Assembly: GCA_902615975.1 (NCBI GenBank)
Contig: CACMRC010000003.1
Coordinates: 57,833 to 121,832 of the forward strand
Reading direction: 5' to 3'
Source of the DNA: an uncultured Pelagibacteraceae bacterium
Lineage (GTDB): Bacteria; Pseudomonadota; Alphaproteobacteria; Pelagibacterales; Pelagibacteraceae
Length of the DNA: 64,000 nucleotides
Part shown: positions 816 to 40,549 of the stretch, one piece after another
Layout of the letters: each line of letters begins with the position of its first letter
How positions within the stretch are numbered: the stretch's first letter is position 1
The notes under the pieces: generated by a model
Told to the model about the DNA's origin: nothing
Databases searched by the model: none
What the model saw: only the letters and a program-made list of their open reading frames with translations
Program-made: the position numbers and the translations under genes

Positions 816-817
816 TT

Positions 818-2191
818 TTATAAAAAATATGCTCCAACACCTAAAAAAGAAACAAAACCTATTACATCTGTAATTGTTGTCACAAAAACACTTGAAGCAA
901 TCGCTGGATCTATATTCATTTTTTTCAGAGTAAAAGGAACTAGTATTCCAAATAATCCAGCTATAATCATTGTTAGTACCATTGATATTGCTATTATTAT
1001 TGAAAGGATACTATCTTGAAACCATATCTGAACAATAAAAGCACTTATTACTGCAAATATAATTCCATTCAAAATACCAATAGAAAATTCTTTAAATACA
1101 TTAGATGAGAAATTGTTTTGAGTTAAATCATTTGTAGCTATAGTTCTTACTGTAACTGCAAGTGTTTGCATTCCAGCATTTCCTCCCATTGAAGCTACAA
1201 TAGGCATTAAGAAAGCTAATACTACCATCTGTTCAATTGTTGCACCAAATAAACTAATGCACCATGTAGCTAGAAAGGCAGTAAATAAATTAAGCAAAAG
1301 CCAATTGAATCTTCTCTTTGTTTTTTTTACAACTCCATCAGTAATTTCTTCGTCTCCTACTCCTGCTAATCTTAAAGTATCTTCTTCCGCCTCCTCTTTC
1401 AAAACTGTTAAAACATCGTCGTTCATAATCATACCAACTAATTTATTGTTTTTGTCAACAACGGCAGCTGAATTCAAATTGTAATTTTCAAATAAGTTGG
1501 CAACCTCCTCTTTATCCATTTCAACAGGAATTAGTAATTGCGACTCTGACATAATTGTTGCCATTTTAGTATCACGAGGTGTAGTTAAAACTCTAGATGA
1601 TGGAACGGTACCTATTGGTTTAAAATCCTCATTAACAATGAAAATTTCTAAAAACTCCTCTGGTAAATCTTTGTTTTCCCTTAAATAGTCAATTGTTTGA
1701 CCTACGGACCAATTGCTGGGTATAGCAGTAAATTCACGCTGCATAAGTCTGGCAGCAGTATCCTCTGGATAGCTTAAGCTTTCTAGAAGAGCAAATCTAT
1801 CCTTTGGTGGTAAGGAGCTAAGAATTGCATTTTTATCCTCCTCAGGAACATTTTCTAATATAGATATAGCATCGTCTGACTCTAAACCTTTTAGAATACT
1901 TACTATAGATTCTGATGATAAATAGGTAATAATTTCTGATTGAATAGACTCATTTAATTCAACAAAAACCTCCGGATCAATATTGAAATTGTTTAATTTA
2001 ATTAAACTTTCTCTATCCCCTTCGCTAAGGTGTTCGATAATATCCGCAGCATCAGCTGGGTGCATTTCATTAAATGAATTGGTAATAAATTGAGCGTCAT
2101 TGTTAGCTATTTTACTGGTAACAACTCTTATATATTCTTTATTAAATTCAAAATTTACTTTTTTATCTTTAGTTTTTTTAGTTAAAGACAT
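818..2191 (-). CDS. mgtE: magnesium transporter MgtE
   Basis: 457 aa. N-terminal MgtE_N-like 'MHPADAADIIEHLSEGDRESL', a central CBS-pair-like region, and a C-terminal multi-TM channel domain with 'MGGNAGMQT'. Confidence 0.9.
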   Translation of the reverse strand: MSLTKKTKDKKVNFEFNKEYIRVVTSKIANNDAQFITNSFNEMHPADAADIIEHLSEGDRESLIKLNNFNIDPEVFVELNESIQSEIITYLSSESIVSILKGLESDDAISILENVPEEDKNAILSSLPPKDRFALLESLSYPEDTAARLMQREFTAIPSNWSVGQTIDYLRENKDLPEEFLEIFIVNEDFKPIGTVPSSRVLTTPRDTKMATIMSESQLLIPVEMDKEEVANLFENYNLNSAAVVDKNNKLVGMIMNDDVLTVLKEEAEEDTLRLAGVGDEEITDGVVKKTKRRFNWLLLNLFTAFLATWCISLFGATIEQMVVLAFLMPIVASMGGNAGMQTLAVTVRTIATNDLTQNNFSSNVFKEFSIGILNGIIFAVISAFIVQIWFQDSILSIIIAISMVLTMIIAGLFGILVPFTLKKMNIDPAIASSVFVTTITDVIGFVSFLGVGAYFL

Positions 2192-2252
2192 AAATCTACC
2201 TATAATTTAGATTTGCACTATTAATACATAATTAAGATAATACAAATTATAA

Positions 2253-2870
2253 ATGAACATAGAGATCAAAAAGTCAATAAAACCAGTAAATTATTTTGAT
2301 GCTATTAATCTACTAGAGACAAGATTAAAGGATTTATATGAAAATAATGATCGAGAATTAATTTGGACTTTGGAGCATAATGAAGTTTTTACAGCAGGAA
2401 CTTCCTATAAAGAAAATGAGATTATTGATAGATCCATCAAAATATTAAAAACAAATAGAGGTGGTAAAATTACCTTTCATGGGCCTGGTCAATTAATTTG
2501 TTATTTTGTTCTAGATTTAAGAAAAAAAAAGGATATCAGGAAATTTATAACAACTATTGAAAAAACAATAATTCAAACATTAATGTTTTATAAAATAGAA
2601 ACTTTTCCAGATAAAAATAATATCGGCATATGGCATAAATATAATAATGAAGTTAAAAAAATTGCTGCAATAGGTATAAGAGTAAGTAAATGGATTGCCT
2701 ATCATGGTTTTGCAATAAATATAAATAATGATTTAAAAAATTATAAAAAAATTATACCATGTGGTATTTCAGATAAAGGAGTAACTAATTTAAAAAATAT
2801 TTTAAATCAAGATTACTCAAATCTAAGTGATATATTAGTTAAAAATTTTATTTCAAATTTGAAAAACTAA
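2253..2870 (+). CDS. lipB: octanoyltransferase (lipoyl(octanoyl) transferase) LipB
   Basis: '[17 protein letters not shown]', '[21 protein letters not shown]' and 'IIPCGI' match the LipB catalytic Lys/Cys regions. 205 aa. Confidence 0.9.
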
Positions 2871-3765
2871 GCCTTTTAGATTTTAAAAGTTTTTTAAAAT
2901 AATCTGGTAACAGTGCTGAATAAGTATGCTTTATATCATTAATCTTAAATTTAATTTGATATGAATGTAGCATTAAATTTTTATTAATTCCTTTATTGGA
3001 ATTTGATAATTTATATTTTGTATCTCCAAATATAGGATTTCCAATTGCATATAGTTGTTTTCTTAACTGATGTTTTCGTCCAGTAATAGGTTTTAACTCT
3101 AATAAACTTGCTTCAGAATTTTTATCAATAACTGTGAAAATCGTTTTTGCTTTTTCGATTATTTTTTTATCGCCGTCGTACCTAATTAAATCATCATCCC
3201 AGATGCCAGATTTTTTATTAATTTCGCCTTGACAGATAGCTAAATAAGTTTTGTGTACTTTTCTTAGTCTAAATAAAGAAGTAAGCAATTGCGCGCTCTC
3301 TCTGTTTTTGGCCATAATAAAAACCCCAGAAGTATCTTTATCCAATCTATGAACAGAATATGGTTTTGTTCCCTCAAAGATTTCACTTTTAGCAAAAATA
3401 TCAACTAGATTTTTTTTTGATTTAGTTCCACCTTGTACTGATATTCCTGATGCTTTGTTTATAACAACAAAATTATCATTATTGTCAATAATTTGATCTT
3501 CATTTGATTTTACAATTTCTTTTGATGGTAAAAACTTAATTTTTTCTTGTTGAATTGTTTCTTTAAAATCAATGTTAAATATATTTATTTCATCTTTCGT
3601 TTTTATTTTAAAAGAGCTTTTTACTTTCTTTCTATTTAACTTTATTTTTCCTGTTCTTAAATATTTCTCAACTAGACCTTGTGGAATCTTACCAATTTTT
3701 AATCTTAACCATCTATCCAAACGCATATCATTACACGTTGAATCAACGATGTAAGATTTCTTCAT
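2848..3765 (-). CDS. RluA-family 23S rRNA pseudouridine synthase (RluC/RluD type)
   Basis: N-terminal S4-like RNA-binding segment '[31 protein letters not shown]' and catalytic-Asp motif '[16 protein letters not shown]'. 305 aa. Confidence 0.85.
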
Positions 3766-3775
3766 GATTTAAGAT

Positions 3776-4219
3776 TTAAGCTGTAGCTTGTTTTTTCTCT
3801 TCCGTTTTAGGAGATTCTTTAGTTGTGTCTTTTTTTGGTTTATCAATTCTCTTGGCTTCAACGTCTCTATCAACAAATTCAATTATTGCCATTGGAGCAT
3901 TATCTCCATATCTAAATCCAGCTTTAATTATTCTTGTGTAACCACCTTTTCTATCTTGATATCTTTTTGAAAGAGTTTTTTTAACTTTATTAGCTGATTT
4001 AATATCTTGTAGTTTAGAAACTAACATTTTGGTTGTCTGTAAAGTTTCTTTTTTACCTAATGTTATTATTTTATCCGCTTGAGGTTTTAGAAATTTAGCT
4101 TTTGGCAAAGTAGTTTTAATCTGCTCATACTTGATCAAAGAATTAAGCATATTCTTAAGTAGAGCTTTTCTGTGCTCTGATGTTCTATTTAACTTCTTAT
4201 TTGCCAAACCATGTCTCAT
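3776..4219 (-). CDS. rplQ: 50S ribosomal protein L17
   Basis: Canonical L17 N-terminus '[24 protein letters not shown]'. Sits directly after rpoA. Has a Lys/Glu-rich C-terminal tail. Confidence 0.97.
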
Positions 4220-5247
4220 TAAATTGCTTCCTCCAATTTCTTAGACATTTCTGCAATGTTGTCTGGTGGCCAGTTAGGAATTTCCATTCCTAAATATAAA
4301 GACATACCTGTTAAAACTTCTTTAATTTCATTTAATGATTTTCTTCCAAAATTAGGTGTTCTCAACATTTCACCCTCAGATTTTTGAACTAGATCACCGA
4401 TATAAATAATATTGTCATTTTTTAAGCAGTTCATTGATCTAACTGATAACTCTAACTCATCTACTTTTCTTAGTAAGTTTTTGTTAAATTCAGGTTCATT
4501 AGAAACTTCTTTTACAGGAGCTTCAACTGGCTCATCAAAGTTTACAAACATTTTAAGCTGATCTTGGAAAATTCTAGCTGAATAAGCTACAGCATCTTCA
4601 GCAGAAATTGATCCATTAGTTTCAACTTCCATTATTAATTTATCATAATCTAATGCTTTACCTTCTCTGGCAGTACTTACTGAATATGAAACTTTTTTAA
4701 CTGGACTATAAAGTGAGTCTATCGCAATAAGGCCTAATGGTGGCTCTTCAGGTTTATTTAGCTCTGCAGGAACATATCCTTTACCTGTATTAACATTCAT
4801 CTCCATATGAAAAGTAGTATTTTCATCTAGATTACAAATAACTAAATCAGGATTTAAAATTTCAACATCTGCAACTGGAGCTATATCTGAAGCTTTAATT
4901 TCTCCAGGTCCTTTTGCGTCTAAAATTAATTTTTTTGTACCCTCAGAATTGCTTTTCAATGCTAAAGATTTTACGTTTAAAACTATATCTGTCACATCTT
5001 CTCTAACACCTTTTATTGAAGTGAATTCATGTAAAACTCCATCAATTTGAATTGATGTTACAGCAGCTCCTCTTATGGATGATAATAAAATCCTTCTTAG
5101 AGAATTTCCTAAAGTTAATCCATAACCTTTTTCTAAAGGCTCAGCTACAATTTTTGCATGGGTTAAGTCGTCACTTATTTGAACATCTAATTTAGATGGT
5201 TTGATTAATGACTTCCAATTTTTTACATTAACATTTTCGATTTCCAT
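4219..5247 (-). CDS. rpoA: DNA-directed RNA polymerase subunit alpha
   Basis: 342 aa. N-terminal domain '[21 protein letters not shown]'. C-terminal domain '[22 protein letters not shown]'. Position is rpsK-rpoA-rplQ. Confidence 0.98.
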
Positions 5248-5696
5248 TAAACTCTCCTTTTTTTTGGTGGTCTAGTTCCATTATGAGGCATAGGCGTAGT
5301 GTCTTTGATTGACAAAATCTTAAATCCTCTAGCTTGCAATGCTCTTAAGGCTGTTTCTCTTCCTGATCCAGGTCCTTTGACTTCAACGGACAAAGTTTTC
5401 ATTCCGTACTCTAGAGCTTTAGAAGCTGCAGAGTCAGCTGCTATCTGAGCAGCATAAGGAGTAGATTTTCTTGATCCCTTAAACCCTTTTTGTCCAGCAG
5501 ATGCCCATGAAATTACATTTCCATTAGTATCAGCAATAGAGATGATGGTATTATTAAATGTTGATTGCACATAAGCAATTCCATTTAAAATATTTTTTTT
5601 AACTTTCTTTTTTTTTGAATAAGAACTTTTTACACTTTTCTTGGTAGATTTTTCTACTTTCTGATCTTTATTCTCAACTTTATCAGCTTTAGCCAT
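5247..5696 (-). CDS. rpsK: 30S ribosomal protein S11 (with about 20-aa Lys-rich N-terminal extension)
   Basis: '[22 protein letters not shown]' and the C-terminal '[13 protein letters not shown]' are S11 hallmarks. Confidence 0.97.
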
Positions 5697-5698
5697 AA

Positions 5699-6082
5699 CT
5701 ATTTTTTAGTTGGTGTTAATTTTTTTCCAGCAATAGCAATTGCTTTTCCTTTTCTTGTCCTAGCATTACATCTAGTTCTTTGTCCTCTAACAGGTAATTT
5801 TTTTCTATGTCTTGTTCCTCTGTAACAAGCTAGATCAATTAATCTTTTAATACTTAATGAATAATCTCTCCTTAAATCACCTTCTACTTTAAAGTTTTGA
5901 TCTATGTACTCTCTAATTTTTAAAATCTCTTCATCAGTTAACTCATTTACTCTTTTAGCTCTTGGAATTTCTAAAGATGAGCAAATTTGCTGAGAGAATT
6001 TATCACCAATTCCATAAATATAAGTTAAACCTATATGAACAAGTTTATTCTGTGGAATGTTTATACCTGCGATACGAGCCAT
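5699..6082 (-). CDS. rpsM: 30S ribosomal protein S13
   Basis: '[13 protein letters not shown]', '[11 protein letters not shown]' and a basic C-terminus. Synteny is rpsM-rpsK-rpoA. Confidence 0.97.
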
Positions 6083-6105
6083 AATTTTTGTGATAAATTG
6101 TGCCT

Positions 6106-6133
6106 TTTATATAAGAAGATTAATCAAAGTCAA
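6106..6133 (-). promoter_or_regulatory. candidate sigma70-type promoter for rpsM-rpsK-rpoA-rplQ (alpha-operon internal promoter)
   Basis: The minus strand reads TTGACT (6133-6128), a 16-nt spacer, then TATAAA (6111-6106). It lies in the 55-bp adk-rpsM gap, one of the few gaps in the cluster. Hexamers only, in an AT-rich genome. Confidence 0.35.
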
Positions 6134-6137
6134 CGTC

Positions 6138-6701
6138 TTATACATTGATAAAAGCATCTATTTTCCTTGTTATTTCATCAATTTCTAGGCTTCCATCAAT
6201 CTCTTTAAAATTCGGATTCTCAGAGTAGAAATTTAGAACTGGTTGGGTTGTTTCCATATATTTCTCATACCTTGAAACTATCGTATGAGCATCATCATCA
6301 GACCTATTTTCTATAATTTTTCTTTTCTCAAGCCTTTTGAGAATTATTTCTTTATCTACGTTTAGAAATAAAATTAAATCTATTTTCTGATTTGAATTTT
6401 TTAGTAACACTTCTAAATTTTTAGCCTGACTTAATGATCGAGGATATCCATCAAAGATTAATTTATTTTTTTTTTGAGGATCAAATATTAAATCTTCTAT
6501 AAGTTTATTAACAATATCATCACTTATAAATTTCCCATTCTTCATGTCATTGGTTATTGCTTTACCAATATCTGAATTTTTTTTCATTTCTTCTCGTAAA
6601 AGATCGCCTGTTGAAATTTGAAAGGCATTTAATTTGTTAACAAGATATTTAGACTGAGTACCTTTTCCAGCACCAGGAGGTCCAAATAAAATTATATTCA
6701 C
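6138..6701 (-). CDS. adk: adenylate kinase (short-LID form)
   Basis: P-loop 'GPPGAGKGTQ' and 'ISTGDLLR'. 187 aa with no Zn-finger LID. Position between secY and rpsM is typical of alphaproteobacteria. Confidence 0.95.
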   Translation of the reverse strand: MNIILFGPPGAGKGTQSKYLVNKLNAFQISTGDLLREEMKKNSDIGKAITNDMKNGKFISDDIVNKLIEDLIFDPQKKNKLIFDGYPRSLSQAKNLEVLLKNSNQKIDLILFLNVDKEIILKRLEKRKIIENRSDDDAHTIVSRYEKYMETTQPVLNFYSENPNFKEIDGSLEIDEITRKIDAFINV

Positions 6702-7982
6702 TTACTTACCAAATTTAGTTTTTTTAATCAGTTGTTCGTATTGTGAGCTCATTAATCTTGTTTGTATTTGTGTTACAGTATCGATAGCTACTACAACAAC
6801 AATTAATATAGATGCACCACCTAAATAAAAAGGTATAGGATAGTTTGCAATTAAAAATTCTGGCATCAAACAAACTAAAGTTAAATATAGAGCACCAATC
6901 GTAGTTAATTTTGTTGAAATATTTTCAATATATAATGCAGTACTTTCACCTGGTCTAATACCTGGCACAAATCCACCATACTTTCTCAAATTCTCAGCCG
7001 TTTCGGTAGGATTGAATGTTATAGAAGTATAAAAAAAAGTGAAAAATATTATTCCTGATGCATACAGCAACATATAAAGAGGTTGTCCTTGAGTAAAATA
7101 AGAGCTTAAGTTTAAAAATGTTTCATTATTAGAAAATGAGAAATTTGAGAATGTGACTGGTAGTAACAAAAGTGCGGAAGCAAAAATTGCAGGAATTACC
7201 CCAGCCTGATTTATTTTTAAAGGTAAATGTGATGACTCTCCACCATACATTTTATTACCCATTTGTCTTTTAGGATAATTAATTAGAATTTTTCTTAATG
7301 CTCTTTCCATAAAAACTACAAAGAGAATTGTAACTATTAATAGAACAAATATTGCTAAAATCATAAAGGTTGAAACTGCACCCGTTCTACCTAATTCAAA
7401 AGTTGTTACCAATGCTCTTGGAATTTCAGCTACAATACCAGCAAAAATTATTAACGAAATACCGTTACCAATACCTCGTTGTGTAATTTGTTCACCTAAC
7501 CACATTAAAAAAATTGTTCCTGCAACAATAGTTGTAACAGTAGTAATTTTAAAAAAAGCCCCTGGATTTATTACTAAGTCAGCTGACGATTCTAGACCTA
7601 CAGATAAACCATATCCTTGCACTGTTGCAAGTAACACTGTTCCATATCTAGTAATTTGGGTAATTTTAGCTCTACCAATCTCACCTTGTGCTTTTAGATT
7701 TTTAAAATAGTCAGAAACCCCAGTCAAAAGTTGAACTATAATTGCTGAAGAAATGTAAGGCATTATACCTAATGCAAAAATTGCCATTCTGCTAACTGCA
7801 CCTCCTGCAAAAACATTAAACATGCCTAACAACCCTTTTTGATTGCCTTCCATCATTATTTTCAATTGTTCTGGGTCTATACCTGGTAAAGGTACAAAAG
7901 TTCCAAATCTATAAACGGCTAAAATTAAAATAGTAAATATAATTCTATTTTTTAAATCATTTGTTGATGATGATGCGCTCAT
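6702..7982 (-). CDS. secY: preprotein translocase subunit SecY
   Basis: 426 aa polytopic protein. 'LGIMPYISSAIIVQLL' and 'GISLIIFAGIV' are SecY signatures. Position is rplO-secY-adk. Confidence 0.97.
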   Translation of the reverse strand: MSASSSTNDLKNRIIFTILILAVYRFGTFVPLPGIDPEQLKIMMEGNQKGLLGMFNVFAGGAVSRMAIFALGIMPYISSAIIVQLLTGVSDYFKNLKAQGEIGRAKITQITRYGTVLLATVQGYGLSVGLESSADLVINPGAFFKITTVTTIVAGTIFLMWLGEQITQRGIGNGISLIIFAGIVAEIPRALVTTFELGRTGAVSTFMILAIFVLLIVTILFVVFMERALRKILINYPKRQMGNKMYGGESSHLPLKINQAGVIPAIFASALLLLPVTFSNFSFSNNETFLNLSSYFTQGQPLYMLLYASGIIFFTFFYTSITFNPTETAENLRKYGGFVPGIRPGESTALYIENISTKLTTIGALYLTLVCLMPEFLIANYPIPFYLGGASILIVVVVAIDTVTQIQTRLMSSQYEQLIKKTKFGK

Positions 7983-7991
7983 ATAAACAAA

Positions 7992-8444
7992 CTATTTTTT
8001 TAATTGAATAGATCCACCAATTTTTTCTAGTTTTTCTATTGCTGATTTAGAGGCTAGGTCAGCTTCAATATTAATTTTATCTTTTACTTCACCAGAGCCT
8101 AAAATTTTTAATTTTTTGGAGTTTTTATTTATTAATTTAAGTTTTTTTAATAATTCTGCGTTTAATACTTCATTCGGATTAATATTTTTTTTATCTATGT
8201 AAGATTGAATTTTATCTAGATTTAAAATTGCTACACTCTCTTTTAATATTGGATTAAAACCTCTTTTTGGAAGTCTTCTGTATAATGGCATTTGACCACC
8301 TTCAAAACTTTTTATAGCTACTCCAGATCTTGATTTCTGACCCTTAACACCTCTACCTGATGTTTTGCCTTTTCCAGAACCAATTCCTCTTCCAACTCTT
8401 AATTTAGATTTATTGATTTTTTCTCTATTATTTAAAGTAATCAT
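7992..8444 (-). CDS. rplO: 50S ribosomal protein L15
   Basis: 'GRGIGSGKGKTSGRGVKGQKSRSG' glycine-rich L15 motif. The start shares one nt with the rpsE stop. Confidence 0.97.
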   Translation of the reverse strand: MITLNNREKINKSKLRVGRGIGSGKGKTSGRGVKGQKSRSGVAIKSFEGGQMPLYRRLPKRGFNPILKESVAILNLDKIQSYIDKKNINPNEVLNAELLKKLKLINKNSKKLKILGSGEVKDKINIEADLASKSAIEKLEKIGGSIQLKK

Positions 8445-8959
8445 TATCCTCTTTTTTCAATTATTTCAGAAATTTTTTTATTTCTTATTGCTGATATTTG
8501 TTTTGGTGAACTTTGTTTCTTCAATGCTTTCATTGTAGCTCTAATAACATTGTGCGCATTAGAGGTTCCCATAGATTTTGCAACAATATCTTTTACTCCT
8601 AAAACTTCGCATACTGCCCTCACAGGACCACCTGCTATTATACCTGTTCCTTTAGAAGCAGCTCTTAACACTATTCTACCTGAGCCGTCTTTTGCCTTAA
8701 CGTCATGATGTATCGTTCTACCTTCTCTTAATGGTATATGAGTAAGTTTTCTTCTTGCCATTTCATTTGCTTTTTTAATAGCATCAGGTACTTGTTTAGC
8801 TTTTGCGTGAGCTATACCGATTTTACCTGCTTGATTTCCAACTACTACAAGCGCTGAAAATCCAAATCTTCTTCCACCCTTAACAACTTTAGTAATTCGA
8901 TTTATGTGGACTAATTTTTCTAATATATCGTCAGTTTTTTTATCTTTTAAATTTTCCAT
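8444..8959 (-). CDS. rpsE: 30S ribosomal protein S5
   Basis: 'INRITKVVKGGRRFGFSALVVVGN' and 'GTGIIAGGPVRAV'. Confidence 0.97.
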   Translation of the reverse strand: MENLKDKKTDDILEKLVHINRITKVVKGGRRFGFSALVVVGNQAGKIGIAHAKAKQVPDAIKKANEMARRKLTHIPLREGRTIHHDVKAKDGSGRIVLRAASKGTGIIAGGPVRAVCEVLGVKDIVAKSMGTSNAHNVIRATMKALKKQSSPKQISAIRNKKISEIIEKRG

Positions 8960-8961
8960 AA

Positions 8962-9318
8962 TTAAAATTCCATCCCGTTTTCTCTTAGAGTTTCTGCAAA
9001 AACTTTAATTCTACCGTGATATTTGTAAGAACCTCTATCAAAGTAAATTTTAGTAATTTTTTTCTCTTGTGCTTTTTTAGCTAATTTTTGTGCAACCAAT
9101 TTAGATAACTCAGTTTTATTAACTTTGTCTGCTGATCTAAGATCTTTTTCTACAGATGAAGCTGATAACAAGGTTACATTTTTTGTGTCATCAATTATTT
9201 GAGCTGAAATATTTTTTGATGATCTAGAAATACTTAATCTAAATCTATCTTTTGAAGCAACTTTTTTAACTTTGTTGCTAACTCTAAATCTTTTTCTGAT
9301 ACTAGTGTTTATTTTCAT
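8962..9318 (-). CDS. rplR: 50S ribosomal protein L18
   Basis: 'NISAQIIDD' and the C-terminal '[27 protein letters not shown]'. Synteny is rplF-rplR-rpsE. Confidence 0.96.
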
Positions 9319-9857
9319 TACTTTTTCTTTCCCTCTTTTTTAAGAACATATTGTCCTTTTTCTCGAACACCTTTTCCTTTATATGGTTCAATTTTTCTGA
9401 ATGTTTTGATTTTAGATGCAACTTCACCAACGAGCTGCTTATCAGATCCTGTGATTTTTAATGTTGTTTGTTTTTCAACAGCAATTTTAATACCTTCTGG
9501 TATATCAAAATTGATATCATGGCTATAACCCAACTGCAAATTTAACTGATTTCCTTTTAATGCTGCTCTATAACCAACACCAATTAGTTCTAAAGTTTTT
9601 TCATAACCTGTGCTTGATCCAATTACAGCATTATTGATTAAACTTCTATTCATTCCCCAAAGTCTTTTTGAATTTTGATCTACTTTTTTTGGTTTAATAG
9701 AAATTTCTTTTCCTTCAATTATGTCTAAATTAAACATATCTAAATCAACATTGATCGATTTTTTACCTAAAGGTCCTTCAATATTTATAATATTACCAGC
9801 TAAAGCAACTTTTACTTTTTCAGGGATCGATATGTTTATTTTACCTATTTTAGACAT
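9318..9857 (-). CDS. rplF: 50S ribosomal protein L6
   Basis: '[17 protein letters not shown]', 'LIGVGYRA' and 'EPYKGKGVR'. Confidence 0.96.
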
Positions 9858-10252
9858 TAAAATACCTTACAAATTATTTCGCCACCAACTTTTTGTTTTC
9901 TAGCATCTATATCGGTCATTACTCCTTTTGGAGTTGAAACAATAGCAATTCCTAAACCATTATTTATTTTAGGTAAACTATCTGCAGAAGAAAAAATTCT
10001 TCTTCCCGGTTTAGATACTCTTTCAAAAGCGCTAATTACCGGATTACCGAAATGATACTTAAGTTCTAAAGACAACATTGGTTTTTTTTCCTCAGAACTT
10101 ACTTTAAAATCTTTTATGAAACCTTCGTTTTTAAGAATATCTGCAATTTTTGTTTTAAAATTAGATGAAGGTAGTTCTACTTTTTTATGATTTCTTGCTT
10201 GAGCATTCTTCACTCTTGCAATCATATCTCCTATAGGGTCACTTAAACTCAT
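9857..10252 (-). CDS. rpsH: 30S ribosomal protein S8
   Basis: 'DPIGDMIARVKNA' and the C-terminal 'GGEIICKVF'. Confidence 0.97.
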   Translation of the reverse strand: MSLSDPIGDMIARVKNAQARNHKKVELPSSNFKTKIADILKNEGFIKDFKVSSEEKKPMLSLELKYHFGNPVISAFERVSKPGRRIFSSADSLPKINNGLGIAIVSTPKGVMTDIDARKQKVGGEIICKVF

Positions 10253-33424: not shown

Positions 33425-35140
33425 TTATAATTTTTCAACCAAATAAGTTCCCATAACCAAATTATCTATATTATATTTTCGATAACATCTAATGGCATCC
33501 TCGGAATCATTTACTATAGGTTCACCTTTAACATTGAAAGAAGTATTCAAAATAACAGGAATGTTAGTTATTTTTTTAAATTCATTTAACAATTTCCAAA
33601 ATTTGTAATTTGTTTCTTTGGAAACACTTTGAACTCTGCAACTATTATCCACATGCACTACCGCTGGTATTAAACTTGATTTATTTTTTTTTACTTTACA
33701 AGCAATTAACATATGCGGACTTTTTTGATTTATTTCAAAAAACTCATATAAATTTTCTTCCATTACAGCAGGTGCAAATGGTCTGAAATATTCTCTAAAT
33801 TTAACATTTTTATTAATGTGATCTTTAATGCTTTCAGGAAAAGGTCTGGCTAATATACTTCTGTTACCTAAAGCCCTTGGGCCAAACTCGGCACCATCTT
33901 GATACCAAGCAACAATTTTACCTTTTTTTAATAGTTCAGCAGTTATTTTGAAAATTTCATCTTTATAATTTGTAAATTTCAAACCACTTTCATTAAGTTT
34001 TTGTTTTATTTTTTTTTCACTTTCCATGTATCCTTTATAAAAATCATTCGTGGGAATTTTCTTAAATTTTTTATTATTTTTCTGTTCGGCAAGCAAACAG
34101 GCCCCATAAGATACTCCGGCATCTCCACTTGCTGGTTGTATAAATATTTTTTTAAATAATTTAGATGATTGAATTTTACCGTTCAAAGAGCAGTTAAGAC
34201 CAACTCCACCACTAATACAAAGGTAATTTGTTTTAGTTATCTTTTTCATTATTTTTAATTGTGAAATTACAATTTCCTCAATTCTATCTTGTAATGCTGC
34301 GGCTATATTTTTATGATGACTTGTAATTTTATTTTCTGCTTTTCGAGGCTTGCCAAACGTTTTAAAAAACTTTTCACTAAACCAAGTATTTTTCTGATAA
34401 TGATAACTTATCCATTTTAAATTAATAAGATATTTTAATGGATCTTTTTTATCTAATTTAATGATATCTCTAAAATAATTTATATAACTTACATTTGAAC
34501 CTGGCACTTTTTTATTAGAATTTCCATAAGGTGCCAAACCCATTATTATACCTTCGTCACAAAAAATCCGCCAACCAAGGAAAAAAGTTATAGCTGAATA
34601 AATTAAGCCTAAAGAATTTGGATATTTATTTTTATCATGAAATATATTAATTTTTTTTCCATTACCTAAACCAAATAAAGCTGAATGAACTTCGCCCATT
34701 CCATCATATGAAACAATCAATGATTTTTTAAATCCACTTGGAAAAAAAGTACTTGCATGATGACATAAATGATGGTTTAGAAATTCAATTTTTTTTCTAA
34801 AACCCAACTTCTTTCTTAAAAAACTTTCTGTATAATAAAGTTTTTTAATTCTCTCAATGTCATCAAAAATATTTTTTATTCTATAATTATCTTTAAGGGC
34901 TAAAATTAAATACTTCTCTTTAATTTGTAGAAAAGGATCATTTCCAAAAGCTATAATATCCAAATCTTTTAACTTTAAATTACCTATTTTTAAGCAATCC
35001 TTAATTGCTAATTCTGGAAAAGCCCTGGTATGTTTTTCTTTATTATATCTTTCCTCCTCACAAGCTGCAATTAACTTACCATTTATTGTTAAGGAGGCTG
35101 AAGTGTCATGCCCCCCAAAATTAATACCTAAAATTTTCAT
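33425..35140 (-). CDS. NodU/CmcH-family carbamoyltransferase
   Basis: 571 aa. N-terminal 'MKILGINFGGHDTSASL..AACEEERYNKEKH' (ASKHA-like fold start of the family) and C-terminal 'NTSFNVKGEPIV'. Confidence 0.85.
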   Translation of the reverse strand: MKILGINFGGHDTSASLTINGKLIAACEEERYNKEKHTRAFPELAIKDCLKIGNLKLKDLDIIAFGNDPFLQIKEKYLILALKDNYRIKNIFDDIERIKKLYYTESFLRKKLGFRKKIEFLNHHLCHHASTFFPSGFKKSLIVSYDGMGEVHSALFGLGNGKKINIFHDKNKYPNSLGLIYSAITFFLGWRIFCDEGIIMGLAPYGNSNKKVPGSNVSYINYFRDIIKLDKKDPLKYLINLKWISYHYQKNTWFSEKFFKTFGKPRKAENKITSHHKNIAAALQDRIEEIVISQLKIMKKITKTNYLCISGGVGLNCSLNGKIQSSKLFKKIFIQPASGDAGVSYGACLLAEQKNNKKFKKIPTNDFYKGYMESEKKIKQKLNESGLKFTNYKDEIFKITAELLKKGKIVAWYQDGAEFGPRALGNRSILARPFPESIKDHINKNVKFREYFRPFAPAVMEENLYEFFEINQKSPHMLIACKVKKNKSSLIPAVVHVDNSCRVQSVSKETNYKFWKLLNEFKKITNIPVILNTSFNVKGEPIVNDSEDAIRCYRKYNIDNLVMGTYLVEKL

Positions 35141-35945: not shown

Positions 35946-36031
35946 TGGTGCCCTCGGCCAGACTCGAACTGGCACTCCGCAAGCGGCAAGGATTTTAAGT
36001 CCTTTGTGTCTACCAATTTCACCACGAGGGC
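35946..36031 (-). tRNA. trnL: tRNA-Leu (anticodon UAA), intact
   Basis: The reverse complement is GCCCTCGTGGTGAAATTGGTAGACACAAAGGACTTAAAATCCTTGCCGCTTGCGGAGTGCCAGTTCGAGTCTGGCCGAGGGCACCA. Anticodon stem AAGGA/TCCTT, loop CT-TAA-AA, long variable arm. CCA is encoded. Confidence 0.95.
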
Positions 36032-36063
36032 ATTAATGAATTTCATGAGTGTTTATGCCAATA

Positions 36064-36092
36064 TTTATAATTGAACAAGAGAAATAAGTAAA
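36064..36092 (-). promoter_or_regulatory. candidate promoter of tRNA-Leu(UAA)
   Basis: The minus strand reads TTTACT (36092-36087), a 17-nt spacer, then TATAAA (36069-36064), about 33 nt upstream of the tRNA 5' end. The same arrangement is conserved in the duplicated flank at 38363-38391. Confidence 0.4.
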
Positions 36093-36103
36093 TTTTTTTT
36101 ATT

Positions 36104-36135
36104 TTATCTCCCTAGGTACTGGTCAGGTACTGGTT
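36104..36135. repeat. 32-bp direct repeat, copy 1 (contains tandem GGTACTGGT boxes 11 bp apart)
   Basis: 'ttatctccctaGGTACTGGTcaGGTACTGGTt' matches 38135-38166 at 28 of 32 positions. Lies between the tRNA-Leu flank and the stop of the last cassette ORF. Confidence 0.85.
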
Positions 36136-36155
36136 GTCCTATAAAGTCCTACAAA

Positions 36156-36485
36156 TTATATTACACTACAATTAAGGTAATAAGTACTTGTGGTAGTTTC
36201 ACTGGTCCAAATTTCAAAGCCCTTTCCATTCTTAAAATTAACCTTATGCCGTACATTAGACTTATTCCAATAATAATTGACCTCTGCACTTATATTATTT
36301 ATTTTTATTGAGGATGTTTTTAAAATATATCCGTCACTTAAAAATTGATCATTTTTAATCTCAAAAATTTCTTTAGATGTTTTGTTTTTAGAGTCGGTTA
36401 CTTCACAAATATATGTAATATTTTTTGCATATAGTACTGTTGACCAAAAAAAGAAAATAATAATAAAATTTAAAATTTTTTTCAC
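36156..36485 (-). CDS. exported hypothetical protein (109 aa, two Cys)
   Basis: Sec-type signal 'MKKILNFIIIFFFWSTVLYA|KN'. Cys27 ('TYICEV') and Cys106 ('LNCSVI', 3 residues from the end). ATGA overlap with the upstream ORF. No family recognised. Confidence 0.7.
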   Translation of the reverse strand: MKKILNFIIIFFFWSTVLYAKNITYICEVTDSKNKTSKEIFEIKNDQFLSDGYILKTSSIKINNISAEVNYYWNKSNVRHKVNFKNGKGFEIWTSETTTSTYYLNCSVI

Positions 36486-37186
36486 GAACAGCTATATTCT
36501 TGAAATGAAATTTTTTGAGTTTCAAAAGATGACATATACTTATCGATAATATTTCGTGCTTCAACTGATGTGTCTATAATTTTTTTCATATATCTATCAG
36601 ATTCTTCATAAAGATTTTTTCCTGGTTGCTGTTCTGTGAAATTTATTGAGTCTTTGTAAATTTTAGACAACTTATTAATAGATTTTTTTATATCCTTATG
36701 TTTATTTAAAAAAATATTATCAAATATGATAAATACTCTATCTAATTTTGTTCTGTTTTCGTCTATTTCATTAATTATATAATAGTATTTTTTTTTACTT
36801 GAAATGTGTCCTTCAATCCAAAACGAAACTTTTTTGGTTTCATCATAAAAAACAAAATAAATTGCTTTTGCAATCAAATCAGTACCATTTGAAGTAAGAC
36901 TTTCATTATATACATCAGCCCCATTTGGTAGTTTTTCACTACTTGGAAAAAAATCAGCAACTTCTTTAGCGTTAAAATGATTTATATAAAATTTTAAAGT
37001 TCGATCGTTTCTTGTGCATTTTATAACATTTTCTTTGCCTGCAAATAATTTCTCGTGTCCACCAAGAGTTATGGGTAGAATTTTACTCTTAAAAAACCAC
37101 TCTTTTGCTTTTGTAGCGTTTGTATCTGCATAAGACGAGGCGTACAAAAATAAAAAAACAAAAAAAGCTATAAAAAGTTTTTTCAT
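36482..37186 (-). CDS. exported hypothetical protein (234 aa, two Cys)
   Basis: Signal 'MKKLFIAFFVFLFLYASSYA|DT'. Cys57 and Cys233 ('EYSCS', penultimate residue). 'YYYIINEIDENRT' resembles 'FYVFEIDREQT' of the upstream ORF. 1-nt stop/start overlap with that ORF. Confidence 0.75.
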   Translation of the reverse strand: MKKLFIAFFVFLFLYASSYADTNATKAKEWFFKSKILPITLGGHEKLFAGKENVIKCTRNDRTLKFYINHFNAKEVADFFPSSEKLPNGADVYNESLTSNGTDLIAKAIYFVFYDETKKVSFWIEGHISSKKKYYYIINEIDENRTKLDRVFIIFDNIFLNKHKDIKKSINKLSKIYKDSINFTEQQPGKNLYEESDRYMKKIIDTSVEARNIIDKYMSSFETQKISFQEYSCS

Positions 37187-37755
37187 TATTTAATCTTACA
37201 TTTGTGTTCAAAATCGTCAATTAAAAGTGGTTTCTCATTTTTAATTATCACATCCAAATGAGATTTTATAAATTTCATTATTTTTTTTTCTTTATCTAAA
37301 GTTTCTTGGTCTAAATTACTTGAAAGACCTAATTTTTGAGTTGTTCCAGTTAGAGTGTATAAGTTTTCGGTAACAAAAATACTTTCTGCTAATGGGTAAG
37401 GAAAAGTCTGCTCTCTATCTATTTCAAACACATAGAATTTTAAAATATCTTCACCAGGAGTAAAAAACTCTGCTTGAATGTAATTTTCATCATATATGTA
37501 TCCTATTAAATTCTCTTGAATTTCTTGTCCAAAAACTAAGACCTCATTCCTTAAAATATTGCCATGAGAATATATCACGTAATCGTCATCAAAACTCTTT
37601 ATAATTTTTAAAGGAAACTTAATTGATGGATGATCTGTTCCAAAAACTGTTTGTAAAGTACAAGTGTATTCATTTTTAGAAATATCAGCGAATGATAAAT
37701 CAAAAAATAAAAAACTAAGAATAATGGCAATAATATTTTTTTTAAGTTTTATCAT
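37186..37755 (-). CDS. exported hypothetical protein (189 aa, two Cys)
   Basis: Signal 'MIKLKKNIIAIILSFLFFDLSFA|DI'. Cys32 ('EYTCTL') and Cys186 ('HKCKIK'). No family recognised. Confidence 0.75.
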   Translation of the reverse strand: MIKLKKNIIAIILSFLFFDLSFADISKNEYTCTLQTVFGTDHPSIKFPLKIIKSFDDDYVIYSHGNILRNEVLVFGQEIQENLIGYIYDENYIQAEFFTPGEDILKFYVFEIDREQTFPYPLAESIFVTENLYTLTGTTQKLGLSSNLDQETLDKEKKIMKFIKSHLDVIIKNEKPLLIDDFEHKCKIK

Positions 37756-37758
37756 ATT

Positions 37759-38118
37759 TTATTTACATGGAAAAACTCTGTACAAATAAGTTGATAGATA
37801 AAAAGCAACCTTATCATTATCTTTGTATTTTCCATTTTTTTTTGCATACATAATTTCAGAATCTATATAATTAATAAAATCATTGAGAGATGGCGACCAA
37901 TTTGAAGGCGGACAAAAAGTTTTTTGATTATATGCTAATGAAACTATTTTATTCCAAAAAATTGCTGAACCTGCAGCTAATACATAATTTTCTAAAACTG
38001 CTACGATTGGAGCATTTTTGCTATTCTTATCATTTAAATACTTGCCTACTGTCATTGTTGAATTAGCAGAATTTATATATACAAAATTTAAAATAATTAT
38101 TATTAAAATTTTTTTCAT
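37759..38118 (-). CDS. exported hypothetical protein (119 aa, two Cys); C-terminal half reminiscent of Rap1a/Tai4-type periplasmic immunity proteins
   Basis: Signal 'MKKILIIIILNFVYINSANS|T'. Cys69 ('TFCPPSNWSPSLNDFINYI') and Cys118 (terminal 'RVFPCK'). The resemblance is from my memory of the family pattern, with no search run. Confidence 0.7.
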   Translation of the reverse strand: MKKILIIIILNFVYINSANSTMTVGKYLNDKNSKNAPIVAVLENYVLAAGSAIFWNKIVSLAYNQKTFCPPSNWSPSLNDFINYIDSEIMYAKKNGKYKDNDKVAFYLSTYLYRVFPCK

Positions 38119-38283: not shown

Positions 38284-38330
38284 CCCTCGGCTTTTAAGTC
38301 CTTTGTGTCTACCAATTTCACCACGAGGGC
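38284..38330 (-). pseudogene. decayed tRNA-Leu(UAA) copy with internal deletion of the 3' anticodon-stem strand, variable arm and T-arm
   Basis: 38292-38330 is identical to 35993-36031 (anticodon loop to the 5' end of the tRNA). 38284-38291 'ccctcggc' equals 35951-35958 (3' acceptor strand). The 34 nt between them in the intact gene (35959-35992) are missing and the CCA end is mutated. Confidence 0.8.
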
Positions 38331-38362
38331 ATTAATGAATTTCATGTGTGTTTACGCTAATA

Positions 38363-38391
38363 TTTATAATTGAACAAGTTTAATAAGTAAA
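38363..38391 (-). promoter_or_regulatory. duplicated copy of the tRNA-Leu promoter, now pointing into the four-ORF cassette
   Basis: The minus strand reads TTTACT (38391-38386), a 17-nt spacer, then TATAAA (38368-38363). Both hexamers and the spacing are identical to 36064-36092, although the flank has 6 substitutions elsewhere. Confidence 0.4.
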
Positions 38392-38402
38392 TTTTTTTAA
38401 TA

Positions 38403-39419
38403 TTAAATTATTTTTGAAATAAATTTAATTACAGAAAAAAAACCCATTTTTGGTCTGATTGCTGATCCTTTTTGACTTTTATCAGAATTATTTAAATAAT
38501 ACTTATGAGCATCTAACATAAGCTCAGCAGTGCTTTTAGTGGGTACAAAGTTTAAATCTTTTTTAATTCTTGAAATATCCAATACAATATTACTAACAAG
38601 GATTTTATTATGATAATCTATAAAATTTATAAAACGCAAAAAAGATAATATCTTCAAAATAAGCAGACCTAAATTTTTATTAAAATGTCTTATTTTAGAT
38701 TTTGAGCCAGTTTTATTTATAAGATATTCAAAAGTTTCTTTCATTGTCTCAACCTTTTCACATCCAATATTATAGACATGCTTTCCTGTTAAATTTATAG
38801 ATTTTTCAATTGCAATAAATAAATCGGATGCAGACACAAATTGTAGTTTATTAGAACCATCTCCTAAAATCCAAAGAGTACAATTATCTTTTAAAAACTC
38901 AAAAAGCACTCCCAGACGATGAGCTCTAGATTTATCAACAATAATTGGACACCTAAAAATTGAAATATTTAATTCAGAGTCCGTGTCCAATAAAAGTGTC
39001 TCAACTTCAAATTTTGTTATTCCATAATAATTTTTACATGAAATTGGTTCAGATTCACTAATTAAATAATCATAATTTTTTTCATAAAGTGAAAATGTTG
39101 AAGTAAAAATTAAATTTTCAACGTTATTTTTTATAGCTGATTTTTTTATGTTTTTAGATCCTTCTACATTTGTTTTATATATTTTCTTTTTGTCATGAGT
39201 ATCAAATATTTCAGATGCAAAATGAAAAATTATATCTGGTTTTTCTTTACTAATAACATCATCAATTTCTGCAAAATTTCCTATGTCTACTTTATAAAAA
39301 TTTGCTTCATTTGAACTAGATATATCAACAAATACTAATTCAAAATTATGGATAAAATATTCTTTAGCAAGATTGCCCAAAAAACCATTTGAACCTGTGA
39401 TTAATATTTTTTTTTTCAT
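38403..39419 (-). CDS. NAD-dependent sugar epimerase/dehydratase (extended SDR)
   Basis: Rossmann 'KILITGSNGFLGNL' (GxxGxxG) and catalytic 'YGITKFEVE' (YxxxK). 338 aa. Confidence 0.85.
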   Translation of the reverse strand: MKKKILITGSNGFLGNLAKEYFIHNFELVFVDISSSNEANFYKVDIGNFAEIDDVISKEKPDIIFHFASEIFDTHDKKKIYKTNVEGSKNIKKSAIKNNVENLIFTSTFSLYEKNYDYLISESEPISCKNYYGITKFEVETLLLDTDSELNISIFRCPIIVDKSRAHRLGVLFEFLKDNCTLWILGDGSNKLQFVSASDLFIAIEKSINLTGKHVYNIGCEKVETMKETFEYLINKTGSKSKIRHFNKNLGLLILKILSFLRFINFIDYHNKILVSNIVLDISRIKKDLNFVPTKSTAELMLDAHKYYLNNSDKSQKGSAIRPKMGFFSVIKFISKII

Positions 39420-39421
39420 GC

Positions 39422-40549
39422 TTAAACTAAATTATTTCTTTTTATATGATTGACAAAGAAAATTATAAAACTTGTAAAAATTAAAAACATTCCAGATTGA
39501 TAAAACATATCATTATCAATCAAATGTCTAATTATCCTATGAAAATAAAAATAGTAAATTGTTAAATATAACCCACATTTAGATATAGCAAATTTATAAT
39601 TTTTAATAACATAAATAAGCAAAGGTAGCATTAAAACATAATCATAGTTTGAGTGTGGCATAAAAATTAAAGGTAAGAAACAAATTACAGATAATTTTGC
39701 TAATTTATTTTTTATATCTTTTATTTGATATAAAAAATAAATATTCCCAAGTAAAACTATTCCTAATTGAATTATTTTATTTGTAACATTATTTTCCTTT
39801 AAAAAATAAATATTTATAATCGAATACAAGTCACCTGTTCTGGTATAATTACCTTGAAAATTCATTCTAAGTGGTTCAAAAAAATTGTAAATTAAATGAC
39901 TATTTGTATAGTAGCTGTAAAATAACCAGCCCAATATCGTTATAATTGAAGTTAATAATAATTTCTTAATTTTTTTTTCAACAAGTAAATTTAAAAATAA
40001 GATATAACCTGTGCTATATTTTACATATGAAATGCCTGATAAAATCAAATTAAAGTTTTTATATAGATTTGAGACTGTCAAGTAGGGTAACATTAAAAAA
40101 AATAACACCATTAGACTGTTCTGGCCCAGATTAAGTGTCATCCTTGTAGGATGGCAAGTTAAAAAAATTCCTAATATCAAATATGAAGAAAGAATAGATA
40201 CGTTATTTGATCTACAAAGAATGATTGGTATTAAAAAAGCAAAAAAAACATTAAGTATGATCCAAAAAATTTTTGCCTGTTCCCATTCTAGAAGAGTTAT
40301 CGGATATAAAAAAATAAATAAAAAATGCCCATATCTTCCATGTTGACATCCTAAAAAAACATCTCCTGTTGTCATCTGATATTCATAATGATTTATCCCA
40401 TCCCAAAAAAGTTTAGATGGTTGCCACATTAAATCACAACTATTGGATAAACCTTTAGAAATTGTTTGTATAAAAAAACCTACAACCAAAATTGATAGAA
40501 AAATAAATATTATTTTATTTCTTTTGCTTAAATTTAAAAAAAATTCCAT
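39422..40549 (-). CDS. polytopic inner-membrane protein, probable glycan polymerase / GT-C-type glycosyltransferase
   Basis: 375 aa, almost entirely hydrophobic, with at least 9 segments by eye and no soluble domain. 2-nt gap to the epimerase gene. The family assignment is inferred from architecture and context only. Confidence 0.6.
   Translation of the reverse strand: MEFFLNLSKRNKIIFIFLSILVVGFFIQTISKGLSNSCDLMWQPSKLFWDGINHYEYQMTTGDVFLGCQHGRYGHFLFIFLYPITLLEWEQAKIFWIILNVFFAFLIPIILCRSNNVSILSSYLILGIFLTCHPTRMTLNLGQNSLMVLFFLMLPYLTVSNLYKNFNLILSGISYVKYSTGYILFLNLLVEKKIKKLLLTSIITILGWLFYSYYTNSHLIYNFFEPLRMNFQGNYTRTGDLYSIINIYFLKENNVTNKIIQLGIVLLGNIYFLYQIKDIKNKLAKLSVICFLPLIFMPHSNYDYVLMLPLLIYVIKNYKFAISKCGLYLTIYYFYFHRIIRHLIDNDMFYQSGMFLIFTSFIIFFVNHIKRNNLV

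Follow-up and report, generated by a model that had tools for sequence, protein, structure and literature searches.

SAR11 bacteria have small genomes thought to be nearly free of mobile elements, and most of their strain-level diversity lies in islands of unclear origin. In this work we analysed a stretch of 64,000 nucleotides (nt) from contig CACMRC010000003.1 of an uncultured Pelagibacteraceae bacterium, hereafter the window, with attention to four consecutive minus-strand genes, A, B, C and D, which encode small exported proteins with two cysteines each. These genes constitute the entire cargo of a 2.26-kb integrase-less cassette located in tRNA-Leu(UAA), after nt 39, in the anticodon loop. 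The host belongs to SAR11 (Pelagibacter, clade Ia); the NAD kinase (NADK) of the window shows 82-93% identity to its counterparts in 80 Pelagibacter genomes.

The ABCD cassette and its insertion site

The four genes, with protein lengths in amino acids (aa), are the following:

37759-38118, minus strand: gene A, 119 aa, signal peptide, Cys69 and Cys118 (FCPP...FPCK)
37186-37755, minus strand: gene B, 189 aa, signal peptide, Cys32 and Cys186
36482-37186, minus strand: gene C, 234 aa, signal peptide, Cys57 and Cys233
36156-36485, minus strand: gene D, 109 aa, GTG start, signal peptide, Cys27 and Cys106

The coordinates of the open reading frames (ORFs) reproduce exactly the four sizes and the tight spacing given in the initial annotation, with a 3-nt gap between A and B, a 1-nt overlap between B and C and a 4-nt overlap between C and D. 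The same annotation placed the operon beside a tRNA, and tRNA-Leu was indeed found 124 nt from the stop codon of D. Comparison with a 97%-identical metagenome copy of ABCD revealed eight synonymous and four non-synonymous changes (ratio of non-synonymous to synonymous polymorphism, pN/pS, 0.12), and on these grounds the four look like real genes under purifying selection. Some gene callers start A at Met22 (98 aa); the long form is supported because its hydrophobic N-terminus is kept in more than 30 distant homologs. An Rfam scan of the locus returned no family besides the tRNA, and scanning for promoters and terminators yielded nothing informative, the DNA being AT-rich.

A repeat search identified a 117-nt direct repeat flanking the operon, in two copies that are 92% identical and lie 2299 nt apart. 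The recombination core corresponds to the 5' half of tRNA-Leu (nt 1-39/42). From right to left, the features that delimit the cassette are:

35946..36031, minus strand: intact tRNA-Leu, anticodon UAA (ARAGORN; Rfam tRNA, 58.6 bits)
35990..36106, minus strand: right copy of the 117-nt direct repeat, comprising tRNA-Leu nt 1-42 and 75 nt of the tRNA upstream region
36101..36135, minus strand: right-end tandem motif D2a, AACCAGTACCtgaCCAGTACCTAGGGAGATAAAAT, in which a pair of 8-nt repeats, spaced by about 11 nt, precedes GGAGATAAAAT
36136..36151, minus strand: tandem motif TAGGAC-TTTA-TAGGAC, read from the sequence, which follows immediately on the D stop codon
38132..38166, minus strand: tandem motif D2b, a second copy 86% identical to D2a, lying 14 nt upstream of the A start codon
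38228..38291, minus strand: conserved cassette left end, with GCCGAGGGA, AGTCC/AGTCC/AGTCT at exactly 10-nt spacing and then TATAAAAT
38289..38405, minus strand: left copy of the 117-nt direct repeat, which begins at the stop codon of an epimerase gene and ends in the pseudo-tRNA
38292..38330, minus strand: pseudo-tRNA-Leu, a partial copy (nt 1-39) that stops in the anticodon loop

The empty site is found in L011 (comparison sequences are designated by L numbers), where a homolog of the epimerase gene (91%) lies directly beside an intact tRNA-Leu. Since the direct repeat brackets the operon and L011 shows the site without it, ABCD can be recognised as the cargo of an insertion that brought its own tRNA 5' half. 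Because the cassette carries this half together with its upstream region, the tRNA is rebuilt at one end while a 39-nt pseudo-tRNA is left at the other. The proposal that the operon belongs to a variable cassette associated with a tRNA is thus borne out by a tRNA-Leu insertion with a flanking direct repeat.

The entire operon is also present on the short Tara contigs L085-L087, at 96-97% identity. In the window and in L085 the cassette comes after the epimerase gene, in L086 after the right end of another cassette; as the neighbour in L086 differs, the ABCD cassette occurs in at least two contexts. Apart from these copies its genes are rare. No relative of A, B, C or D was detected in 80 SAR11 reference loci, even at E<=1, and a scan of the Genome Taxonomy Database (GTDB) genomes with B was likewise negative. 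Among 5.8 billion proteins we found five relatives of A (79-96% identity), five of B (77-99%) and three of C (95%, 86% over a partial sequence, and 51%), all of them from marine metagenomes. ABCD are therefore not core genes, in agreement with the earlier expectation, being absent from the 80 SAR11 genomes and carried by few metagenome contigs.

A fixed four-gene system is not supported, since A-B, C and D are found separately in other cassettes. C occurs without A, B and D in L001, A occurs without B in L093, and other sequence takes the place of D in L004. This variation in gene content between cassettes indicates that the operon is a mosaic of independently shuffled genes for exported proteins.

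Related cassettes, pelagiphages and satellite-like elements at tRNA-Leu

Measured in 56 genomes, the interval between NADK and the gamma-glutamylcyclotransferase-like gene (GGCT), in which this tRNA-Leu lies, spans anything from 86 bp to over 9.3 kb, and its content is unrelated between genomes. Intervals of 86-170 bp hold tRNA-Leu alone, and five genomes have nothing but the tRNA between GGCT and NADK, as at an empty site; larger intervals contain genes for glycosyltransferases, methyltransferases, type IV pilins, transporters and lipoproteins. One or two extra partial copies of tRNA-Leu, all breaking at nt 39, were present in 32 of the 80 reference loci, where such cassettes stand singly or in arrays. 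With the window and L085 added, these loci yielded 39 cassettes of 1.0-5.6 kb whose genes are almost all co-oriented with the tRNA. Searches of the window and of the 39 cassettes with tblastn and Pfam did not reveal an integrase.

The ends of these cassettes share a common architecture. Most left ends consist of GCCGAGGGA, which resembles the tRNA 3' acceptor end GCCGAGGGC, followed by three AGTCC/AGTCT repeats at exactly 10-nt spacing and then by CATCCTATAAAATC; other classes have three AGTCTC repeats. The AGTCC/AGTCT (or AGTCTC) repeats and TATAAAAT may represent recombinase arm sites, or an operator overlapping a promoter. The right ends comprise two TAGGAy motifs, two cassette-specific tandem repeats of 8-10 nt with a period of about 11 nt, GGAGATAAAAT and the tRNA upstream region. 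The TAGGAy pair occupies the same place in L092 and L004, and the tandem-repeat arrangement recurs with other repeat sequences at the right ends of the cassettes of L092, L004 and L086; the repeat is CCAGTACC in the window, ACTAGAAGCC in L092 and ACTATAnCAG in L004. The tandem repeats are followed by rGGAGATAAAT, and in the window and L092 a second, matching copy lies just upstream of the first gene. In L004 (2030-2073) the tandem repeats at the two ends do not match.

The cargo of the other cassettes includes type IV pilins, tripartite ATP-independent periplasmic (TRAP) and ATP-binding cassette (ABC) transporters, a trypsin-like protease, a 1175-aa restriction-type enzyme and a GIY-YIG protein, as well as many exported proteins without known function. 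Pilin genes (N-terminal FTLIELLVVVAIIGILAA, Pfam N_methyl) were located in the cassettes of L035 (4034-8139), L028 (8641-9210) and L081 (9276-9758), and their presence in several cassettes suggests that pilin variants are exchanged via the tRNA-Leu site.

The same tRNA is affected by events of other kinds. A different insertion, with a second copy of the tRNA-Leu 3' part starting at about nt 27-31, was observed in L007 (9018-9996), L059 and L035 (9941-9996), and in L007 an integrase-like gene, 22% identical to the integrase of the pelagiphage HTVC105P, lies directly beside the duplication. The coexistence of these 3'-part duplications with the nt-39 cassettes implies that tRNA-Leu is targeted by at least two recombination systems. 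The commonest neighbour of tRNA-Leu is a two-gene reverse-strand module encoding proteins of 406 aa and about 279 aa, present in L020, L043, L047, L069 and L084 (at about 7734-9910 in these five) and in L008, L022, L032 and others. A partial tRNA that is more degenerate and reaches nt 42 precedes it in five genomes, and the module looks like an older, partly fixed cassette.

The insertion site is shared with phages. The attachment core (attP) of HTVC105P, immediately downstream of the phage integrase gene, is identical to tRNA-Leu nt 1-42, and the core is also present in HTVC109P. Experiments have demonstrated that these phages integrate at tRNA-Leu(TAA), with the 5' part of the tRNA coming from the phage (bioRxiv 10.1101/410191). 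We considered the ABCD cassette as a remnant of an HTVC105P-type prophage and rejected this origin, as the phage arm bears no relation to what follows the core in the cassette.

A closer resemblance was found among the 23 IMG/VR contigs that carry the core. In L097, L112, L116 and L118 the core is followed by CGCAAnGGATTCAC...AGTCTC three times (GGATTCAC...AGTCTC three times), arranged as in a cassette left end, and about 85 nt upstream of the core a tandem repeat and GGGGAGATAAAT are arranged as in a cassette right end. L097 (IMGVR_UViG_3300025897_001356, 1-7799) has a 99-bp exact terminal repeat and is therefore a 7.7-kb circle. Directly after its core (tRNA-Leu nt 1-39) lies a gene for a 545-aa protein that resembles a tyrosine recombinase, its Phage_integrase domain scoring below threshold, and the element also encodes a 781-aa archaeo-eukaryotic primase (AEP) with DUF5906. 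Its positions 42-100, ahead of the integrase gene, are laid out like a cassette left end, and tandem repeats like those of a right end lie at 7590-7632. L097 is probably a SAR11 phage satellite akin to the VEIMEs (virion-encapsidated integrative mobile elements), with L112, L116 and L118 as relatives. VEIMEs are marine phage satellites prevalent in Pelagibacter, and about 20% of them lack an integrase (Eppley et al. 2022, PMC9618062). In our data integrases were found only in the related circular elements and in L007. The ABCD cassette keeps both arms and is devoid of integrase and replication genes, and for this reason it looks like a miniature or decayed derivative of a satellite-type element.

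Taken together, these observations make us highly confident that ABCD travels on a rare, modular cassette that lacks an integrase and occupies a phage and satellite attachment site.

The surroundings of the cassette deserve a brief description. The window includes the rpoBC, ribosomal-protein and elongation factor Tu (EF-Tu) region with several tRNAs. Adjoining the cassette, an epimerase gene and a membrane glycosyltransferase-like gene (38403-40549) are themselves island cargo; among the 80 genomes this pair has close homologs (89-94%) in L011 and L047 only, and no tRNA repeat marks its boundary. Between NADK and tRNA-Thr lies a carbamoyltransferase gene (33425-35140) that has no counterpart downstream of NADK in nearly all of the 80 SAR11 loci. 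Small exported ORFs take its place in other SAR11 loci, which makes this side of NADK a second variable spot.

The exported proteins and the probable link of A to Rap1a

A, B, C and D have exactly two cysteines each, at positions 69/118, 32/186, 57/233 and 27/106, respectively, and the last one always lies 1-3 residues from the C-terminal end, in full accordance with the initial annotation. The classical signal peptides that it described are present in all four proteins as regards the K-rich n-region, the hydrophobic core and the lack of a lipobox; the small residue expected at -3 is not found in D, which has Leu at this position. Cysteine within the last six residues is uncommon: of 1516 genes derived from ORFs of SAR11 loci, 3.4% show it. 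A set of 93 signal-peptide-like proteins no longer than 250 aa contains only six that combine exactly two cysteines with a C-terminal one, and three of these six come from the ABCD operon; given these numbers, four such proteins in a row are far from what chance would produce. Both cysteines are kept in all full-length homologs found. We infer that A, B, C and D are exported by Sec and oxidised in the periplasm, where a disulfide would pin the C-terminus.

The position of the last cysteine admits some variation. Two B homologs, P0011 and P0012, extend about 40 residues past it, implying that an extreme-terminal cysteine is not obligatory in B. With respect to other homologs, in P0007 the signal peptide of A is swapped for an unrelated N-terminus, and in P0008 a C-terminal frameshift removes the last cysteine. 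Near-C-terminal cysteines are also present in runs of exported proteins from other cassettes (L025 8062-9787, L062 5894-6955, L013 7787-8011 and L001 1320-1772), including three consecutive proteins in L025 and a protein with an Adhesin_E domain in L001. The C-terminal cysteine is thus a theme that recurs across the cargo of the tRNA-Leu island.

None of the four proteins matched Pfam, NCBIfam, PHROGs or PADLOC (the last at E<=1), and none matched PDB sequences, either as single sequences or as profiles. An exhaustive profile search of 1.84 billion representatives, however, assembled a family around A of 36 proteins at E<=1e-3, nearly all of 106-133 aa and aligning end to end. In an alignment of 33 of these sequences Cys69 never varies, and Pro71, Pro117 and Cys118 hardly vary, giving the pattern F-C-x-P ... 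F-P-C-K. Fifteen of the 33 matched Pfam PF18602 (Rap1a), over the full domain length and with a best E of 3.1e-5.

Rap1a from Serratia marcescens is a 127-aa precursor with a signal peptide and five helices; its dimer sterically blocks Ssp1, a type VI peptidoglycan endopeptidase, and its folding requires a Cys78-Cys122 disulfide (PMC3852654). The A family likewise keeps an N-terminal hydrophobic segment throughout, and A has a small mature domain predicted to be helical. The AlphaFold2 (AF2) model of A, built from six close sequences (predicted local distance difference test, pLDDT, 71), is all-helical, with helices at 24-30, 37-63, 78-94 and 105-115. By residue numbering, the two cysteines are 49 residues apart in A and 44 in Rap1a. 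Cys69 and Cys118 of A appear to correspond to the cysteines of the Rap1a disulfide, and by this analogy A probably has a disulfide that staples its C-terminus. Our data suggest that A is probably of Rap1a-like ancestry, that is, a remote Rap1a-like protein and not a formal member of the family.

A gene of the A family, 32% identical to A, was found on a 4.8-kb metagenome contig (L095, 84-3469), where it adjoins an AEP with an AAA_25 helicase domain. This primase and that of L097 are 31% identical over 133 aa. The proximity of an A homolog to a primase related to that of L097 suggests that Rap1a-like genes are cargo of similar mobile elements elsewhere.

B probably acts as a partner of A. In L092 a homolog of A (47%) is followed, with an 8-nt overlap, by a gene for a 181-aa exported protein that has two cysteines, an FDD motif placed as in B and the same ...C-K-I-K end (FECKIK). 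This protein resembles B only weakly, at an hhalign E of 0.009 and a z of 3.9 in global alignment, where 4 of 1000 shuffles did equally well. The recurrence of this gene order in L092 suggests that A and B are a conserved pair. In L093 no B-like gene follows the A homolog.

With regard to C, its 51% homolog keeps both cysteines and is located in another cassette with the same ends (L001), which also holds a 110-aa exported protein with four cysteines and the 150-aa Adhesin_E-domain protein, with its near-C-terminal cysteine. The predicted secondary structure of C comprises a seven-strand sheet, two long helices and a terminal strand. In its AF2 model (pLDDT 69, with the core above 80) Cys57 lies in the first strand and Cys233 in the last one, which fits a terminal staple; Foldseek searches of PDB and BFVD with this model returned no structural neighbour. 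D was found only in the metagenome copies of the ABCD cassette (L085-L087), with another sequence in its place in L004, and had no family, PDB or viral-contig match. Lysozyme-inhibitor (MliC-like) and lipocalin-like identities were considered for D and B and had no profile support.

Possible function of the cargo and comparison with known systems

The best overall explanation of these data, to which we give about even credence, is that ABCD constitutes a strain-specific periplasmic orphan immunity module carried by a mobile tRNA-Leu cassette. A, B, C and D would each be a stoichiometric binder or inhibitor of incoming envelope-degrading enzymes and would act independently, with A and B possibly working as a pair; the targets would be peptidoglycan hydrolases released by competitors or phages. 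The cassette might be moved by a recombinase acting in trans, or spread through homologous recombination over the conserved sequences that flank it. As the cassette holds exported proteins only, A would be an orphan if it is an immunity protein. The initial annotation had likened the operon to immunity or antagonism-defence cassettes. Of this reading, the remote relationship of A to a periplasmic immunity family has stood; an immunity function of the ABCD set is tentative, and we consider it somewhat less probable than not.

Several results weigh against such a module. There is no toxin gene near the cassette, and SAR11 bacteria are free-living and planktonic, with no known type VI system, so that attack by contact may be rare. 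The PF18602 scores of the A family (13-25 bits) fall below the gathering score of 27.7, and A itself did not match PF18602 at E<=1. NCBIfam returned nothing for the A family, the A-family profile did not reach Rap1a by sequence among PDB chains, and Foldseek found no Rap1a and nothing below E 4 in PDB with the model of A, a weak test given its pLDDT of 71. No relative with a known function could be detected for B, C or D, so that immunity is an extrapolation in their case. As for mobility, the four genes, the cassette junction and the left-end motif were all absent from IMG/VR contigs, and no circular or excised form of the cassette was seen. Finally, the right end has a tRNA upstream region of chromosomal type and not the P arm of L097, and for that reason spread by homologous recombination across the conserved flanks is equally possible.

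The strongest alternative, which we nevertheless regard as rather unlikely, is that the operon is the moron of a decayed satellite or prophage that has lost its integrase and replication genes, altering the envelope to keep competing phages from adsorbing or their DNA from entering (superinfection exclusion) and not neutralising toxins. The location of the cassette at a proven pelagiphage attachment site (attB), the resemblance of its ends to the arms of L097, an element with integrase and primase, and the A-family gene beside a related primase on L095 all favour this origin. So do the type IV pilins, restriction enzyme and trypsin-like protease of the sister cassettes, which are typical surface and defence cargo, and the periplasmic serine proteases and phage-interference genes carried by Pelagibacter VEIMEs (PMC9618062). 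On the other hand, the four proteins have no match in PHROGs or PADLOC and no relatives on viral contigs or phage genomes, the cassette contains no phage gene remnants, and the sole family link leads to an anti-toxin immunity fold and not to known exclusion proteins.

It could also be argued that ABCD encodes the parts of a single periplasmic or surface complex, such as an accessory for adhesion or uptake, the operon being a functional unit. Translational coupling through the short gap and overlaps, the common design of a signal peptide with one cysteine pair, the apparent conservation of the A-B pair in L092 and the association of a C homolog with an Adhesin_E-domain protein in a sister cassette are consistent with this idea. 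However, the modular content of the cassettes described above implies that the genes travel separately, which makes a four-subunit complex less likely, and the cassette contains no gene for a membrane anchor, usher, pilin or transporter; we judge such a complex to be improbable. Descent of the four genes from one ancestral exported two-cysteine protein, a tandem paralogy first suggested by their similar design and by short look-alike motifs, is hardly credible, since those motifs are not significant, BLASTP, phmmer and profile-profile hhalign align the signal peptides only, the proteins differ two-fold in size, and the contrast between an all-helical A and a mostly beta C already contradicts kinship of these two.

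Returning to the orphan immunity module, a broader scenario, which we regard as rather unlikely, is that tRNA-Leu(UAA) serves as an integron-like capture platform. Mini-cassettes retaining just the two attachment arms of satellite-type elements would be moved in trans by the tyrosine recombinases of satellites or pelagiphages, would stack in arrays and would be transcribed from a conserved left-end promoter, and ABCD would shield the peptidoglycan of a planktonic, free-living host devoid of a type VI system from foreign lytic enzymes.

Whatever the function of its cargo, the locus offers a concrete, sequence-defined mechanism for one SAR11 island, in which a tRNA half and conserved arms delimit small cassettes of cargo. 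These arms share their architecture with integrase-bearing circular satellite-like elements, at a site that is also used by temperate pelagiphages, and the island thereby becomes experimentally approachable. Three or four new families of exported proteins are defined (the A family, B, C and D). If the Rap1a-like A and its neighbours are indeed immunity-type inhibitors, even plankton that are dilute and free-living would come under selection from antagonism directed at peptidoglycan or from phage lysins. Additive islands associated with tRNAs, the integration of pelagiphages at tRNA-Leu, VEIME satellites and Rap1a immunity proteins are already known. What appears not to have been described before is the family of integrase-less cassettes with satellite-type arms stacking at tRNA-Leu nt 39, as well as the two-cysteine exported cargo, the A family seen as a distant, marine offshoot of Rap1a, and the B, C and D families.

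Comparison with known systems places the ABCD cassette close to several of them. It shares with the temperate pelagiphages of the HTVC019P type (HTVC105P/109P/119P) the attachment core of tRNA nt 1-42 and the supply of the tRNA 5' part by the incoming element, and differs from them in the lack of phage genes. With the VEIME-like L097 it has in common the tRNA-Leu core, three AGTCY repeats after the core, a tandem repeat and GGAGATAAAT before it, and a small size; in contrast, the cassette measures only 2.3 kb, lacks integrase, primase and replication genes, and has the chromosomal tRNA upstream sequence as its right arm. Partial tRNA repeats have been reported, in general terms, to mark cassette insertions in four SAR11 additive flexible islands (Microbiome 2025, PMC11796062); the conserved ends, the link to integrase-bearing circular elements and the ABCD cargo do not appear to be described in that report.

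At the protein level, A resembles Rap1a/Tai4a (PF18602) in being a precursor of about 120 aa with a Sec signal peptide and a small all-helical mature domain, with one cysteine before the last helices and another beside the C-terminus, in the FPC motif. Unlike Rap1a, A has no adjoining Tae4/Ssp1 effector or type VI genes, the cassette being flanked by housekeeping and glycosylation genes, and its host is a streamlined planktonic bacterium.

At the level of gene organisation, orphan immunity islands and acquired interbacterial defence (AID) clusters, such as the AID systems of Bacteroidales, are the nearest parallel. ABCD is also a set of unrelated small exported proteins, without toxins, on a mobile, strain-variable element; it differs in that just one of its genes is linked to an immunity family, of the type VI kind, that its immunity function is putative, and that the cassette has no recombinase. 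The SAR11 cassettes can also be set beside those of integrons, from which they depart in having no IntI gene nearby and in using as a site a tRNA half with direct-repeat arms, and which they resemble in being small, promoter-proximal, co-oriented, integrase-less and stacked in arrays at one site.

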